DNA of 64,000 nucleotides from an uncultured archaeon. Its GTDB lineage: Archaea > Asgardarchaeota > Thorarchaeia > Thorarchaeales > Thorarchaeaceae. Under the pieces are notes generated by a model, which saw nothing but the letters and a program-made list of their open reading frames with translations, was not told the origin of the DNA and did no database searches. Positions 4,760 through 32,594 of this stretch are shown one piece after another. Made by a program: the position numbers and the translations under genes. Each line of letters begins with the position of its first letter. The stretch's first letter is position 1. The stretch spans positions 139,442 to 203,441 of the forward strand of contig CAZLEV010000004.1 of the NCBI GenBank assembly GCA_964558645.1, written 5' to 3'.

Positions 4760-4912
4760 ATGACAGATGAAATAGATGAAGGGCTGCTGAACCTCCTGGA
4801 AATGGTGGTTCGCTGCTACGACTGCTGACTATCCTGCGGCGCTCATTTCGTCGTTGTGGACGATGAGGGTCGCGAGATAGTTCGGAAGGAGCTAGTGACT
4901 GGCGGCGGATGA
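4760..4912 (+). CDS. vhuU: Selenocysteine-containing hydrogenase subunit VhuU (Sec codon TGA 4826-4828)
   Basis: Manual translation MTDEIDEGLLNLLEMVVRCYDC-U-LSCGAHFVVVDDEGREIVRKELVTGGG*. Supplies the L2 motif missing from the upstream gene; SECIS follows. Confidence 0.93.
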
Positions 4913-4968
4913 AGGCCCGGCGTAAAGATGTGAGCCGGGTTGGACACGCCCCGCAAGGGCGCGCCAGT
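4898..4968 (+). promoter_or_regulatory. Eukaryote-like SECIS element of vhuU
   Basis: A-UGAA core (4909-4913), helix GGCCCGGC/GCCGGGUU, apical loop containing AAA (4924-4926), 3' core GGAC (4942-4945). Closed by GGCG/CGCC or ACUGGCG/CGCCAGU. Confidence 0.85.
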
Positions 4969-26206: not shown

Positions 26207-27151
26207 ATGGCAAAGCCACTCCGTTCCATGACTGACAAGAAACAAGGAACCACGATTTGTTCTATCTGCGGCGGTGACGACTTCTACGAGGACCATTCAC
26301 GGGGCGAAACCATTTGCACATCATGCGGTTGTGTCATCACCGAGCGGATAATGGATACCGGGCCTGAGTGGAGAGCATTCACCACAGAAGAGAGAAACTC
26401 AAGGGCTCGTACGGGCGCCCCCATGACACTCACCATGGCGGATAAGGGTCTAGCCACAACCATCTCATGGAGTGATAGGGACGCCAACGGGCGTTCAATC
26501 AAGGCTAGCAATCGAGCCGCAATCTACCGAATGCGAAAGTGGCAGATCAGAACCCTTGTTCACAGCTCCCAGCACAGGAATCTCAGCATAGCCATGAGTG
26601 AGATGGATAGACTCAGTTCTCAGCTTGGTGTACCACGCGAGACAAAGGAGACAGGTGCACTTGTCTATCGTAAGGCTCTGGCGAAGAGACTTGTCAGAGG
26701 CCGCAGTATCGAAGGAATGGTGGCAGCATCCGTCTATCTCTCATGCAGAATCCACAAGATTCCTCGACAACTCGACGAGATAGTTGACGAGGCCAGAGTG
26801 AATAGAAAGGAGCTTGGACAGTGTGTCCGTCTGATACTGCGCTACGTTGATGTCAAGGTACCCATTCCATCTGCAAACGACCTTATGCCGCGAATCTCAG
26901 CCGATCTCGAGCTTGATGGCCAGACCGTACAAACAGCTATGAACATAATCAATGAGGCCAGGCAAAAAGGAATCACAGCAGGCAAAGACCCTGGCGGGCT
27001 TGCAGCAGCGGCGCTCTACATCGCAGGTATCATAACTGATGACCGACGCACTCAGCGAGAGATTGCAGAGGCCTCCAATGTGACCGAAGTCACCGTGAGG
27101 AACAGATACAAGGACCTCGCGACAAGCCTGAAGATAACAATACGTCCATAG
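26207..27151 (+). CDS. tfb: Transcription initiation factor IIB (paralog 1)
   Basis: Zn ribbon CSIC...CTSC, GPEWRAF, GKDPGG, TQREIA...TEVTVRNRY. Confidence 0.96.
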   Translation: MAKPLRSMTDKKQGTTICSICGGDDFYEDHSRGETICTSCGCVITERIMDTGPEWRAFTTEERNSRARTGAPMTLTMADKGLATTISWSDRDANGRSIKASNRAAIYRMRKWQIRTLVHSSQHRNLSIAMSEMDRLSSQLGVPRETKETGALVYRKALAKRLVRGRSIEGMVAASVYLSCRIHKIPRQLDEIVDEARVNRKELGQCVRLILRYVDVKVPIPSANDLMPRISADLELDGQTVQTAMNIINEARQKGITAGKDPGGLAAAALYIAGIITDDRRTQREIAEASNVTEVTVRNRYKDLATSLKITIRP

Positions 27152-27361: not shown

Positions 27362-28318
27362 ATGAACCGATCCACGAGATATAATTCGGAGAAAGAATCA
27401 TCGCAGAACACATGTCCGGTCTGCGGAGGCAACGACTTCCACGAAGATGAAGCCCGGGGAGAGAAGACCTGCACTGCATGCGGATGTGTTGTTTCCTCAC
27501 ACATCATAGACCACGGTCCTGAATGGAGAGCATTCACTGCCGAAGAGAGAAATGCTAGAGCTAGGACCGGAGCTCCGATGAGGCTCTCGATTCCAGATAA
27601 AGGTCTGTCTACCAGTATCAGCTGGAGTAACAAAGACGCTAGAGGACGTTCAATCAAAGGTAAGAGACGTGCAGCCATCTACAGGATGCGAAAGTGGCAG
27701 ATACGGAGCATTGCCCATCAATCACAACACAGGAATCTTCGGATAGCAATGAGAGAGCTCGATAGGCTCTCCTCACAGATGGGTATCCCGAGAAAGGCCG
27801 GGGAAACCGCTGCTCTGATCTACAGGAAAGCATTGAATAAACGACTCATCATGGGCCGAAGAATAGAGTCTATGGTTGCAGCATCGCTGTATCTATCATG
27901 CCGTATCCATAGAATCCCTCGCCAGCTGGACGAGGTTGTAGACGAGACTTCCATCGACAGGAAAGCACTATCGAAATGCGTCCGTAGAATCATCCAGAAC
28001 GTTGATGTACATATACCCCTTCCTTCAGCAAGGAATCTGCTTCCAAGAATATCTGCAGACCTTGAGATGGAGGGCAAGACTGTTCAGAGGGCCTCTGACA
28101 TCATCAAGCAGGCAGAGAAGAAAGGCATAACTGCGGGCAAGGACCCTGGCGGTATCACGGCAGCCTCTCTGTACATTGCTGGCATCATTGAGAATGATAG
28201 GCGTACTCAGAGAGAGATAGCCGATGCATCAAATGTCACTGAAGTAACAATCCGCAACCGATACAAAGAGATTGTGAGAGAACTGGGCATAACCGCGAAC
28301 CCCAGACAGTACGAGTAA
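27362..28318 (+). CDS. tfb: Transcription initiation factor IIB (paralog 2)
   Basis: CPVC...CTAC, GPEWRAF, TEVTIRNRY. Own TATA-like TTATATAT at 27238-27245. Confidence 0.95.
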   Translation: MNRSTRYNSEKESSQNTCPVCGGNDFHEDEARGEKTCTACGCVVSSHIIDHGPEWRAFTAEERNARARTGAPMRLSIPDKGLSTSISWSNKDARGRSIKGKRRAAIYRMRKWQIRSIAHQSQHRNLRIAMRELDRLSSQMGIPRKAGETAALIYRKALNKRLIMGRRIESMVAASLYLSCRIHRIPRQLDEVVDETSIDRKALSKCVRRIIQNVDVHIPLPSARNLLPRISADLEMEGKTVQRASDIIKQAEKKGITAGKDPGGITAASLYIAGIIENDRRTQREIADASNVTEVTIRNRYKEIVRELGITANPRQYE

Positions 28319-28385: not shown

Positions 28386-29135
28386 ATGGAACAGTTCCTC
28401 ATCGCCCTTTGTGGACTGCCGGCATCAGGCAAGACAAGCCTAGTTCAGGCAATCGAAGGATTACTTGCGTCACAAAGCGTCAGAGTGGTCAGTACTGACA
28501 GATGGCGTGATGAGGAGTACTACGAGAACTTCAGACCATCAAGAGAGAGACTCGTTAGAAGACGAGCACTGAAGGAGACCGAGCTACTACTGAGTCGTGG
28601 CATCAGTATCATTCATGATGATACGAATTACTATGCGAGCATGCGCCACGAGCTGTTTGATATGGCTGTGAAACATGAAACATCTTTCGGAATCATCCAT
28701 GTCAAGACACCGGTAGATATAGCTGTGAAATGGAATGAAGAGCGAGATACATTCATTCCAGAAAGAGTCATTCGGCGCATAGCAGAGAGAATGGATACTC
28801 CTGGGGAGAGATACAGCTGGGACAGACCCGCTCTTAGCGTTGATCTCAGTGCCACGGATGTTGCTTCAGCTGCTCAACAGGCTGTTGAAGCATTGGAAAC
28901 ACTTGCGCCTGCAGAGCAGGAAGCCTATGATGAAGAAGCGGAAAGACAGAATAATCTCATCGACTCGTTGACCAGAAACACCGTGACTCAATTCTTGGAG
29001 ACCCATAAGAACCTTAGAGGGGACGCAAGGGTGAGTTCGATCAGAAGGTCTGTGGCAAGAAGCGCCATGGACTCTGAGATTCCTATGGAAGATATACAGC
29101 GAGTACTCTTAGGACGTCTCAGACGCCTTCTGTGA
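28386..29135 (+). CDS. pstK: L-seryl-tRNA(Sec) kinase
   Basis: GLPASGKT, DDTNYYASMR, WNEER, PGERYSWDRP. Adjacent to tRNA-Sec. Confidence 0.9.
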   Translation: MEQFLIALCGLPASGKTSLVQAIEGLLASQSVRVVSTDRWRDEEYYENFRPSRERLVRRRALKETELLLSRGISIIHDDTNYYASMRHELFDMAVKHETSFGIIHVKTPVDIAVKWNEERDTFIPERVIRRIAERMDTPGERYSWDRPALSVDLSATDVASAAQQAVEALETLAPAEQEAYDEEAERQNNLIDSLTRNTVTQFLETHKNLRGDARVSSIRRSVARSAMDSEIPMEDIQRVLLGRLRRLL

Positions 29136-29193
29136 CTATCTTCTAGTTCCCTGACTAGTTGGACTGGGCCTCATGCTCTTAAGCGGAGACCAA

Positions 29194-29427
29194 TCAATGC
29201 GTTTCTTGTTCTCTCCTACCAAGCTCCAATTTCAGATATATTGCGAAGAGAATCAGCGCAATCGCACCTAGTTGCAGGCTTGAAACTGGAAGCAGCAAAA
29301 ACCCCGATCCGAGAAGTGCAAGAGCGAGGAGCAGGCCGCTGGCGCTCTTCAGTACAGCCCGAATCCACCACTGATTATATTGTGAGCCCGAATCATCGGG
29401 GGTTGTCAACGTCGTTTGAACCACCAT
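29194..29427 (-). CDS. Small two-TM membrane protein downstream of tRNA-Sec
   Basis: ATG 29427; two hydrophobic segments. Confidence 0.5.
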   Translation of the reverse strand: MVVQTTLTTPDDSGSQYNQWWIRAVLKSASGLLLALALLGSGFLLLPVSSLQLGAIALILFAIYLKLELGRREQETH

Positions 29428-29534
29428 ATACCATTCGGCGGTAAATGTGATTAGACTTTCGGATAGCGTATCTGCATGATTGCAACCACCATTTATGGTG
29501 CCAGAACGAGCTTGGAGTTGTCCTTGCATGAAAA

Positions 29535-29625
29535 TGGCGGCCCCCTAGCAGAATCGAACTGCTATCGCTTGCACGATCATGGGTTTGAAGCCCACGGAAC
29601 CCGACCACGGGCTCTGTAGGGGGCC
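29535..29625 (-). tRNA. selC: tRNA-Sec (anticodon UCA)
   Basis: GGCCCCCUA/UAGGGGGCC 9-bp acceptor stem, 7-bp D stem GAGCCCG/CGGGUUC, anticodon loop CU-UCA-AA, long variable arm, 4-bp T stem GCAG-UUCGAUU-CUGC, G73 and encoded CCA. Confidence 0.97.
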
Positions 29626-29780
29626 AGAAACTCGCCGCTAGAAAGACATATGCAGGTCTTAAAGGTCACGTATCAGTGCATTATTTGATAAGCCTTAAAG
29701 CGTATTGAAAGGTGCCACGATACTGTCAGAGAGGAGTCGCCCGGCCTTCGAAGCCTCTATGACACAACTCCAAAAGGTGC

Positions 29781-31322
29781 ATGAACTTGGTCATTGGCAT
29801 AGACGGCGATAGCCTGACTATCGAAGATGTCGTGAGAGTGGCACGACATGGAGAAGAAGTCGCTATTGCAGAGCAGGCAGTCCGGAAGATAAGAAGAAGT
29901 CGCGAGGTCGTCGAGCGCGCGATAAGCGAGAACAAGGTTGTCTACGGAATAAATACAGGCTTTGGGGAACTGGCGAATGTCAGAATTGGCTCGAAGGACC
30001 TAGCACAACTGCAGACCAATCTCATCCGTAGCCACAGCGCTGGAGTTGGCCAGCCTTTCGAAGAAGAGACGGTTAGGGGGATGATGCTGCTCCGAGCAAA
30101 CGCCCTATCCAAGGGATTCTCAGGAATACGCTTGACGGTCATTGAGACCCTCATTGAATTGCTCAATAAGGGAGTGACTCCTGTCGTCCCTCAGCAGGGG
30201 TCTGTTGGAGCCAGTGGAGATCTGGCACCGCTTGCACACATGACCCTGGTTCTCTTGGGGGAGGGAGAGGCCTTCTACGGTGGAGAGAGAATGTCAGGCC
30301 TTGATGTTCTCAACAAGGCAGGAATCAAACCAGTAAGTCTACAGGCAAAAGAAGGGGTGGCACTGATCAACGGAACACAGCCCATGAGTGCAGTAGGGGT
30401 ACTGGCCGTCTATGATGCAATGGAGCTGCTCAAGGATGCCACTGTTGCTGCCGCAATGAGCCTGGAGGCCCTCCGGGGAACAAGAAGCGCATATGACAAA
30501 CGCCTCCATGCAACCAGGCCCCACCAAGGCCAGATGGATGTCGCAGCAGCACTGCGGAGACTTCTTCCGCCCAGTGAGATAGGCGATTCGCATATCGATT
30601 GCGCTAAAGTGCAAGACGCGTATTCCATTCGCTGTGCACCTCAGGTCATTGGGGCCTCTCTGGACACAATCCGTTATGTGGCACAACTGCTTGAGGTAGA
30701 GATCAATTCTGCCACGGATAATCCACTCGTCTTCTATGAGAGCGAAGAGATTGTTTCCGGAGGTAACTTTCACGGCCAACCTGTGGCCTTGGCCATGGAT
30801 TTTCTTGGTATAGCCCTGGCGGAGCTTGCCAACATTGCAGAACGACGTATCAACCGTCTAGTCAATCCAAAACTGAGTGGACTCCCCTCGTTCCTGACTG
30901 AAGAGAGCGGATTGGAGTCCGGAATGATGCTTGCCCAGTACACTGCCGCTGCTCTGGTCTCGGAAAACAAGATATTGGCCCATCCAGCCAGTGTTGACTC
31001 AATTCCAACAAGTGCTGACCAGGAAGACCATGTCAGTATGGGAACTATCGCAGCACGCAAGTGCCGTACTATCCTCGAAAATGTGCGAAACGTCATCGCA
31101 ATTGAGTACATGTGTGCAGCACAAGGCTTGGACCTATTAGCACCACTCCAGGCCTCTGAACCCCTTGTTCATGCCAAAAAGACGATACGGACAAAAGTGG
31201 AGAAACTTGAAGATGACCGACAGCTCAGTGGAGATATCCTAGCTGTTTCCGAACTTGTGAGGACCAGGCAGATCTGCAGGGCTGTGGAAGAGATCACAGG
31301 CAGTCTCTACAGCGACAGCTGA
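29781..31322 (+). CDS. hutH: Histidine ammonia-lyase
   Basis: VYGINTGFG, GSVGASGDLAPL (MIO), QDAYSIRC, SGGNFHG, QEDHVSMG. Confidence 0.97.
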   Translation: MNLVIGIDGDSLTIEDVVRVARHGEEVAIAEQAVRKIRRSREVVERAISENKVVYGINTGFGELANVRIGSKDLAQLQTNLIRSHSAGVGQPFEEETVRGMMLLRANALSKGFSGIRLTVIETLIELLNKGVTPVVPQQGSVGASGDLAPLAHMTLVLLGEGEAFYGGERMSGLDVLNKAGIKPVSLQAKEGVALINGTQPMSAVGVLAVYDAMELLKDATVAAAMSLEALRGTRSAYDKRLHATRPHQGQMDVAAALRRLLPPSEIGDSHIDCAKVQDAYSIRCAPQVIGASLDTIRYVAQLLEVEINSATDNPLVFYESEEIVSGGNFHGQPVALAMDFLGIALAELANIAERRINRLVNPKLSGLPSFLTEESGLESGMMLAQYTAAALVSENKILAHPASVDSIPTSADQEDHVSMGTIAARKCRTILENVRNVIAIEYMCAAQGLDLLAPLQASEPLVHAKKTIRTKVEKLEDDRQLSGDILAVSELVRTRQICRAVEEITGSLYSDS

Positions 31323-31328
31323 GAGTTT

Positions 31329-32594
31329 CTACGGGCCCAACCGCGTATGCACTACTTCGCCATCTGCAATCACCGTATGCACAAGATTGATGCCGAACCG
31401 ATAAGCGATGAAGTCAGGATTGGGGCAGTCGAGTATGATGATGTTAGCACGCTTGCCGGCTTCAATACTTCCAACTTCCTGACCCCTATCTACGGCATGA
31501 GCTGCGTTTATGGTGGATGCGGAGATAGCCTCTTCGGGGTACATCTTCATCTTGTAGCAGGCCAGTGCGATGGTGAAAAACATCGACTCGTTTGCACAGT
31601 TTGGGTTAAAGTCCGTTGCAAGGGCCACAGGAAGCCCCATCTCTATCATAGAGCGTGCATCTGCATAATCACTATCCAGACTGAATGCCGTTGCAGGGAG
31701 GAGGGTAGCGATGGTCCCAGCACGTCGCATCTTCTCCAGGTCATCTACCGAGGCTTGAAGAAGGTGATCGGCCGAGACTGCACCAACTTCGGCGGCCAAT
31801 CCAGCCCCACCCAGCTGTACAATCTCATCCGCATGCACTTTCAGTCTCATGCCGGCCTTCTTCGCAGCAAGCAATATCCTCCTAGACTGCTCAATATCAA
31901 ACACTCCTTTCTCACAAAACACATCACAGAACTCTGCCAGATGCTCATCTGTGACTGCGGGAATCATCTCGTCCACTACGAGATCCACATAGTCGTCCGT
32001 CCGTCCCTTGTACTCAGGAGGGATTGCGTGAGCCCCGAGAAAGGTGGAGATGATCTCAGTGGGCAACATCTCGCAGAGAGCCCCTGCAGCTCTGAGCATC
32101 TTCAGTTCGTTCTCTGTATCAAGACCGTATCCGCTCTTTGCCTCGATGGTTGTTGTTCCTCGGGCTAACATGCCATCAGCAAACGAGAATGCATTACTTC
32201 GAAGCTCGCTGAGTGTTGCAGAACGTGTTGCTCGGAGAGTATTCAGTATCCCTCCTCCCGACTCGAGTATCTCCATGTACGACTTGCCGGCGAGCTTCAT
32301 AGCGAAATCATGTTCCCGTGAGCCACCAAAGACAAGGTGGGTATGACTATCTACAAACCCCGGCAGGGCAAACATGTCGGGAAACTCAATGGGTGGAATG
32401 GCAGGTTCTTCGTCTACTGCAGAGAGCACACTCGGTGTTGTTCCAGCAGCAATAATCCGGCCCCCCTTGATTGCAACTGCCCCGTTCTCAATCATCGATA
32501 GCTCTCTCATCTCGCTCCCTACCTTGGGTGCTTCACTATGCCCTGCAAGAGTCGCTAGTCTACCAATATTAGTCAGTAAGAGATCGGGCTTCAT
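31329..32594 (-). CDS. hutI: Imidazolonepropionase
   Basis: PGFVDSHTH, EAKSGYGL, DVFCEKG, HADE, ATDFNP. Confidence 0.96.
   Translation of the reverse strand: MKPDLLLTNIGRLATLAGHSEAPKVGSEMRELSMIENGAVAIKGGRIIAAGTTPSVLSAVDEEPAIPPIEFPDMFALPGFVDSHTHLVFGGSREHDFAMKLAGKSYMEILESGGGILNTLRATRSATLSELRSNAFSFADGMLARGTTTIEAKSGYGLDTENELKMLRAAGALCEMLPTEIISTFLGAHAIPPEYKGRTDDYVDLVVDEMIPAVTDEHLAEFCDVFCEKGVFDIEQSRRILLAAKKAGMRLKVHADEIVQLGGAGLAAEVGAVSADHLLQASVDDLEKMRRAGTIATLLPATAFSLDSDYADARSMIEMGLPVALATDFNPNCANESMFFTIALACYKMKMYPEEAISASTINAAHAVDRGQEVGSIEAGKRANIIILDCPNPDFIAYRFGINLVHTVIADGEVVHTRLGP

Follow-up and report, generated by a model that had tools for sequence, protein, structure and literature searches.

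A tail-to-tail gene pair for PSTK and tRNA-Sec in Thorarchaeia, with a small membrane protein gene at the junction in one genus

Genes for tRNA-Sec and PSTK

The analyzed window is a stretch of 64,000 nucleotides (nt) from contig CAZLEV010000004.1 (positions 139,442 to 203,441, forward strand) in the genome assembly GCA_964558645.1 of an uncultured archaeon belonging to the class Thorarchaeia. The window contains genes for two partners of the selenocysteine (Sec) pathway, the selenocysteine tRNA (tRNA-Sec) and the kinase PSTK. The pstK and tRNA-Sec genes lie ~400 nt apart on opposite strands, tail-to-tail, and are separated by a small membrane open reading frame (ORF). This convergent arrangement, with pstK on the plus strand and both the tRNA gene and the ORF on the minus strand, was found as described in an earlier prediction from the same DNA, herein referred to as the original prediction. 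The three genes are as follows:

28386..29135, plus strand: pstK, encoding PSTK of 249 amino acids (aa); identified by TIGR03574, PF08433, and a PDB profile match to Methanocaldococcus jannaschii PSTK
29194..29427, minus strand: gene for a small protein of 77 aa with two transmembrane helices; identified by a frame kept in three species and by the ratio of nonsynonymous to synonymous substitution rates (dN/dS)
29535..29625, minus strand: gene for tRNA-Sec with the UCA anticodon, 91 nt, intronless; identified by ARAGORN, Rfam RF01852, and covariation

The tRNA-Sec gene is the sole tRNA called by ARAGORN in the window (tRNA-SeC, anticodon tca). It also matches the Rfam model RF01852 over model positions 1-91 (29539-29625) with a score of 59.8 bits (gathering score 47, E 1.3e-9), and no other match in the whole 3.63-Mb assembly exceeds the gathering score. 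As read from the sequence, the acceptor stem has 9 bp (GGCCCCCUA/UAGGGGGCC) with a CA linker after it, and the D stem has 7 bp (GAGCCCG/CGGGUUC) closed by a 4-nt UGGU loop. The anticodon stem has 6 bp (CGUGGG/CCCAUG) with the loop CUUCAAA, the variable arm AUCGU-GCAA-GCGAU forms a 5-bp stem with a GCAA loop, and the T stem has 4 bp (GCAG/CUGC) with the loop UUCGAUU. The discriminator is G73 (G at position 88, ahead of CCA), and CCA is encoded. All the features listed in the original prediction for a complete tRNA-Sec are present in the sequence, and the fold is accepted by both ARAGORN and RF01852. The gene is of the archaeal type, combining an above-threshold RF01852 score with the UCA anticodon, G73, a long variable arm, a 9/4 fold (13 bp in total), and a 7-bp D stem; the D stem of tRNA-Sec has 7 bp in archaea and 6 bp in eukaryotes (PMC3035459).

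The fold was further analyzed in an alignment of the window gene with orthologues from 23 further genomes of Thorarchaeia (n = 24), which contains no indels. In the 9/4 cloverleaf, 98.5% of the alignment cells are paired, vs. 28-52% after a shift of the 3' partners by 1-3 columns; for the acceptor and T-stem pairs, the paired fraction is 97-100%. Two-sided changes were found at 16 of the 31 pairs, including acceptor pairs 4-9, five of the seven D-stem pairs, and two of the four T-stem pairs. Acceptor pairs 8 and 9 are thus among the changing pairs. Covariation was seen in every helix, and its observed score was matched by none of 500 shuffles. G1:C72, G2:C71, C3:G70, the UGGU D loop, G73, and CCA are invariant across all 24 orthologues. 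The pairs G2:C71 and C3:G70, pointed out in the original prediction, are given as PSTK identity pairs in the work by Sherrer et al. (2008; PMC2330242).

The protein encoded by pstK matches the NCBIfam model TIGR03574 (selen_PSTK) with 140.5 bits over profile positions 1-240 of 249, and the Pfam family PF08433 (KTI12) with 118.9 bits. It is the only KTI12-family gene in the window genome. Since the TIGR03574 score is under the curated cut-off of this model, the protein was compared directly with both PSTK and Kti12. Among all PDB sequences, the single protein sequence matches only M. jannaschii PSTK (E 4e-26). A profile built from 12 Thorarchaeal orthologues matches the same protein with 158.4 bits (E 2e-45) over positions 4-243, which is the full length. 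The next-best PDB match of this profile is Kti12 (6QP0), with 28.4 bits over only ~70 residues, and P-loop kinases of the Pnkp and APS types score no more than 27 bits, level with Kti12.

Residues of both PSTK domains are conserved as well. In the N-terminal P-loop domain, GLPASGKT at residues 10-17 (Walker A, GxxxxGK[ST]) and DDTNYY at residues 78-83 align to the corresponding motifs of M. jannaschii PSTK; G10, P12, S14, G15, K16, and D78-Y83 are invariant in the 12 Thorarchaeal PSTKs. In the C-terminal helical domain, D193, R197, V200, and L204, also invariant in these 12 proteins, align with D195, R199, V202, and I206 of M. jannaschii PSTK, which make the D-loop and base-triplet contacts in the PSTK-tRNA-Sec complex (PMC3035459).

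Co-occurrence and gene order in Thorarchaeia

The nearest relatives bearing a name are metagenome-assembled genomes of Candidatus Thorarchaeota. The distribution of both genes was analyzed in 87 species genomes of Thorarchaeia, and tRNA-Sec was counted if it scored over the RF01852 gathering score. The pstK gene was found in 72 genomes and tRNA-Sec in 67. All 67 genomes with tRNA-Sec have pstK, and no tRNA-Sec above the gathering score was found in the genomes lacking pstK. The two genes share a contig in 64 of the 67 genomes, being convergent every time, and are no more than ~410 nt apart in 62 of them. The distance from the pstK stop codon to the CCA of the tRNA was measured for 25 loci: it is 0-2 nt in 5 loci, at most 30 nt in 14, and at most 85 nt in 18. 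The remaining 7 loci, including those of the window genus, have a gap of ~260-400 nt. The synteny of pstK, the small ORF, and the tRNA-Sec gene (selC) suggested for comparison by the original prediction holds in part: the pstK-selC pair extends across Thorarchaeia, but the ORF occupies the gap in one genus only.

A longer distance, 1.6-1.7 kb, was observed in genus g15 (L072 G077:C141 and L073 G079:C34). As judged from translations, the ORFs in this gap resemble an S-adenosylmethionine-dependent methyltransferase and a TauE/SafE-type membrane protein; both appear to be broken into short frames in G079.

Outside Thorarchaeia, no tRNA was found by ARAGORN and Rfam within 3 kb on either side of pstK in 20 loci, each from a different genome, belonging to nine other Asgard families, though an intron-bearing tRNA-Sec could escape these scans. 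For this reason, adjacency of the two genes outside Thorarchaeia is described here as not seen rather than absent. A search for the anticodon-arm pattern also yielded nothing around these 20 loci, and this pattern misses the one Loki-type tRNA-Sec located here too.

The class-wide layout consists of tfb-pstK convergent with tRNA-Sec-orf217-SepSecS-selB. Of 29 Thorarchaeal loci, 27 have a tfb gene preceding pstK on its strand, and 21 have orf217 upstream of tRNA-Sec. In the window genome, selB (462 aa), SepSecS (440 aa), and the orf217 homologue, an Asgard-only gene, are contiguous on another contig (G000:C13:2083-7751). The position upstream of tRNA-Sec, held by orf217-SepSecS in other genera, is held in the window by hutH. 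Because selB, SepSecS, and orf217 are located elsewhere and hutH lies beside the tRNA gene, the cluster was split in the window genus between orf217 and the tRNA, which stayed with pstK. The tail-to-tail pair of pstK and tRNA-Sec forms the conserved core of the Thorarchaeal cluster, and the half made up of orf217, SepSecS, and selB has been relocated to a different contig in this genus.

Two tandem genes of the TFIIB family precede pstK in the window:

26207..27151, plus strand: second tandem tfb paralogue; Pfam TFIIB and Zn_Ribbon_TF
27362..28318, plus strand: tfb (TFIIB family); Pfam TFIIB and Zn_Ribbon_TF; 67 nt upstream of pstK, start codon uncertain

Where the sequence was read (the window and L014), tfb and pstK are separated by ~70-90 nt. 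The pstK-proximal TFB proteins are 99.3-99.7% identical between species whose PSTKs share only 67-91%. On the displaced contig G000:C13, the start of SepSecS overlaps the stop codon of selB, and a 218-aa ORF follows the cluster at the place where tRNA-Sec would be. Genes of the histidine-utilization type are located on the promoter side of the tRNA gene in the window, encoding an aromatic amino acid/histidine ammonia-lyase (29781-31322, plus strand) and an amidohydrolase, which may be an imidazolonepropionase (31329-32594, minus strand).

The Sec pathway and alternative explanations of the locus

A selenoprotein gene and its recoding signal are also present in the window:

4760..4912, plus strand: vhuU-like selenoprotein gene of 50 codons; in-frame UGA (Sec) at codon 23 in the motif DCULSCGAH, from translation with TGA=U
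4908..4946, plus strand: eukaryote-like selenocysteine insertion sequence (SECIS), a predicted fold with an AUGA core overlapping the vhuU stop codon

As indicated by Pfam matches of its neighbors, vhuU lies downstream of FlpD and of the small-subunit and large-subunit hydrogenase genes. The SECIS has an 8-bp upper stem (GGCCCGGC/GCCGGGUU) and an apical loop that starts with GUAAA. It agrees with the GUAAA-type loop motif reported for the SECIS of Thorarchaeal frhA and vhuU (PMC11227280). The vhuU gene is 23.5 kb upstream of pstK, close to the ~24 kb given in the original prediction, and the statement made there that the window holds the tRNA, the kinase, a target, and a recoding signal is borne out, all four having been located.

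The remaining genes of the pathway were found outside the window, on other contigs of the same genome. These are the genes for SepSecS (471.8 bits, cut-off 224.85), SelB/EFSec (291.3 bits, cut-off 242.25), and SelD (404.8 bits, cut-off 125). The SelD match (L062, G000:C12:110681-111607) is located inside an open frame of 749 aa that no stop codon interrupts, so this copy is fused to another domain and has Cys rather than Sec.

Together, these data make it very probable that the locus encodes the substrate-enzyme pair, tRNA-Sec and PSTK, of the archaeal/eukaryotic Sec pathway in a Thorarchaeial genome. The direct observations behind this reading are the identities of the genes, the covarying RNA fold, the conserved recognition residues, the co-occurrence of the two genes, and their synteny. 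According to the established pathway, tRNA-Sec would be transcribed from its own TATA-type promoter and then charged with serine by SerRS, and PSTK is predicted to phosphorylate the resulting Ser-tRNA-Sec. The acceptor stem of 9 bp, with its pairs G2:C71 and C3:G70, would be read by the N-terminal P-loop kinase domain of PSTK, and the compact D arm, with a 7-bp stem and a 4-nt loop, by the C-terminal helical domain via D193 and R197. SepSecS, SelD, and SelB would then form Sec-tRNA-Sec and bring it to the UGA codons of genes with a eukaryote-like SECIS, of which vhuU is one example. Two elements flanking the tRNA gene may take part in its expression:

29658..29663, minus strand: TATA-like TTTAAG box, putative tRNA promoter, 33-38 nt ahead of the 5' end of the mature tRNA
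29531..29534, minus strand: TTTT run, possible tRNA terminator, immediately after the encoded CCA

The TTTAAG box is a candidate promoter of tRNA-Sec, and YTAAG-like motifs are present at a similar distance upstream of the orthologous genes. The TTTT run was found in the window genome (G000) and in G074, but not in G073 or most other genera. A conserved oligo-T terminator behind tRNA-Sec is therefore unsupported, and the run is weak evidence for a terminator in the window genome.

Several points weigh against the assignment of the locus to the Sec pathway. Among public RNA runs, none covering the locus was listed, and we infer the expression of the locus, the processing of its RNA, and the activity of the kinase from the sequence. 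The source is a metagenome-assembled genome with 92.8% completeness and 6.3% contamination. In addition, the TIGR03574 score of 140.5 bits is under the NCBI curated cut-off of 290.5, and the protein would not be automatically named PSTK by this model. We judge this score to reflect divergence from the known members of Methanococcales and Methanopyrus rather than non-membership. The same score, together with the placement by Pfam in the family PF08433, named KTI12, would fit a Kti12-like Elongator cofactor or a generic P-loop kinase that neighbors tRNA-Sec by coincidence. This explanation is extremely improbable, given the full-length 158-bit match to M. jannaschii PSTK vs. 28 bits over ~70 residues of Kti12, the conserved D-loop-binding residues, and the fact that the gene neighbors tRNA-Sec in 64 of 67 genomes and is never missing where tRNA-Sec scores above the gathering threshold. 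The profile scores, the recognition residues, and the co-occurrence with tRNA-Sec largely refute a Kti12 identity of the kinase, which groups with PSTK, as the original prediction had it, and not with Kti12 or other P-loop kinases.

The small ORF located between pstK and tRNA-Sec is a real gene. Its ATG is at 29427 and its stop codon at 29194-29196; the start is on the strand of the tRNA and 108 nt beyond its 3' end, exactly as in the original prediction. The frame is free of indels across the three species of the genus, the differences are concentrated at third codon positions (40 of the 76 differences in the most distant pair), and dN/dS is 0.10-0.22, vs. 0.8-2.5 in the two other frames. A longer version of 111 aa, starting from the ATG at 29529, was rejected, its first 34 codons being broken by stop codons in both sister species. 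In the encoded protein, the N-terminus is acidic and the tail is basic; it also contains two hydrophobic helices and the conserved motif N-x-W-W-[IV]-R-x-x-L-K. No match to it was found in Pfam or NCBIfam, and a search against 5.8 billion proteins returned only the protein itself and one copy from a sister species, more distant relatives being found only with a profile. These relatives are clear in two other Thorarchaeal genera (117-128 bits once included) and weaker in two more. In all four genera (g4, g9, g13, and g14), they are located at other loci, either on contigs other than that of pstK or, in g14, ~12 kb from it. In total, family members were detected in 12 of the 77 Thorarchaeal genomes searched and in none of the 224 other Asgard genomes, while PSTK is present in 157 of these 301 genomes. 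The position in the pstK/tRNA-Sec gap is restricted to the three genomes of the window genus.

Different ORFs were observed in the gap of two other genera. In g12 (five species) and g13 (one species), a gap of 260-300 nt holds a two-helix ORF of 70-95 aa on the pstK strand (L012, L019, L027, L034, L068, and L069), with an acidic N-terminus and a basic C-terminus. By eye, the g12 ORFs are alike among themselves and unlike the window ORF. Thus, small membrane ORFs recur at the pstK/tRNA-Sec junction.

The position of the window ORF 108 nt downstream of the tRNA and on its strand, the purifying selection acting on it, and the presence of small two-helix ORFs in the same gap of other Thorarchaeal lineages could suggest a Sec accessory factor, for example for selenium uptake or handling, co-transcribed with tRNA-Sec as a tRNA-mRNA dicistron. 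We consider such a role very unlikely, because the gap position is confined to one genus and the relatives in four genera lie elsewhere, and because the family was found in none of the non-Thorarchaeal genomes searched, many of which have PSTK. Furthermore, the ORFs that other genera have in the gap are encoded on the opposite strand and show, by eye and with no comparison run, no evident similarity to the window ORF, and the TTTT run immediately after CCA in the window genome is a mild argument against co-transcription. Since the family does not track the Sec trait, the small ORF is not a Sec factor; the association with Sec genes put forward for checking in the original prediction fails on this distribution, on which the reading as a Sec-trait gene was rejected. 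The ORF is a genus-specific insertion unrelated to selenocysteine, from a family restricted to Thorarchaeia.

The spacing of the pair itself raises another question, namely whether the conserved 3'-to-3' abutment is functional, with read-through of pstK or of the tRNA giving antisense RNA that couples the levels of kinase and substrate. In favor of this are the gaps of 0-30 nt in 14 of 25 loci, with 0-2 nt in 5, and the survival of the pair in the window genus after the rest of the cluster had moved away. With such gaps, the terminator of each gene must sit inside or beyond the other gene. Nevertheless, several lineages, that of the window among them, tolerate gaps of ~260-400 nt or, with genes inserted, of 1.6-1.7 kb; no adjacency was seen in the 20 other Asgard pstK loci; the genes were reported on distinct contigs in Lokiarchaeota (PMC4989117); and plain inheritance of an ancestral cluster accounts for the pattern. 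A functional abutment is therefore unlikely. It is likewise improbable that near-zero spacing forces overlapping convergent transcription, leaving an anti-tRNA-Sec tail on the pstK mRNA or making the tRNA transcript antisense to pstK. If it did, the kinase and its substrate tRNA would be linked by a built-in feedback, and the recurrent insertions of small membrane ORFs at the junction would be relaxations of this coupling. The abutment may have a regulatory meaning, but such a meaning is unsupported, and the preferred reading of the locus remains that of a PSTK/tRNA-Sec pair kept from the Thorarchaeal cluster.

Comparison with known systems

The Sec machinery of Asgard archaea was previously described for Lokiarchaeota (Mariotti et al., 2016; PMC4989117) and for hundreds of Asgard genomes (ISME J, 2024; PMC11227280), and the Sec trait was reported in 77.4% of Thorarchaeia (PMC11227280), compared with 72 of 87 class genomes having pstK in the present analysis. 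The system found here is like the described one in its set of components (tRNA-Sec, PSTK, SepSecS or SecS, EFSec/SelB, and SelD), in the archaeal-type tRNA with UCA, G73, the 9/4 fold, the 7-bp D stem, and the 4-nt D loop, and in selenoprotein targets such as VhuU with a eukaryote-like SECIS. An Asgard-only hypothetical protein was also reported near secS, efSec, and pstk (PMC11227280). The pairing of pstK with tRNA-Sec is not spelled out in these two papers (PMC4989117; PMC11227280). Thus, the Sec system itself is already known, and only the order of the genes adds a new, minor detail. The additions made here are the class-wide pstK/tRNA-Sec pair, preceded by tfb and surviving the break-up of the cluster, and a small ORF that is real but not Sec-related.

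The kinase is most similar to M. jannaschii PSTK (MJ1538; PDB 3ADB, 3A4L, and 3AM1), also a two-domain kinase, with which it can be aligned end to end. The tRNA shares G2:C71, C3:G70, C5:G68, and the 7-bp D stem with tRNA-Sec of Methanococcales, but the Thorarchaeal protein is divergent from the PSTKs of this order, as the difference between 140.5 and 290.5 bits for TIGR03574 indicates. Kti12 is an Elongator-associated tRNA-dependent ATPase. It represents a paralogous branch of PF08433 (PDB 6QP0) and shares the Pfam family and the P-loop fold class with the Thorarchaeal protein, which differs from it both in the profile scores and in tracking the presence of tRNA-Sec within the class.

These results are of use for annotation. 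In the window genome, UGA is recoded as selenocysteine, so gene calls ending at UGA need checking, as in the case of vhuU. For Thorarchaeia, gene order provides a diagnostic marker: tRNA-Sec can be sought immediately downstream of pstK, and pstK itself after tfb. For the small ORF, annotation as a Sec factor should be avoided.

Differences from Lokiarchaeota were found in both gene order and gene structure. In Lokiarchaeota, pstk and tRNAsec were reported on distinct contigs, with EFsec ~6 kb from the tRNA (PMC4989117), whereas the window pair is tail-to-tail. Moreover, the T loop of the Loki tRNA-Sec is interrupted by a 31-nt intron, and the Thorarchaeal genes, of 91 nt, are intronless. In a non-Thorarchaeal Asgard genome of the Loki type, a tRNA-Sec match (L058, G207:C2:189906-190018) was found on a contig other than that of pstK. 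Since this match spans 113 nt, the gene probably contains an intron, which fits the T-loop intron described for Lokiarchaeota.

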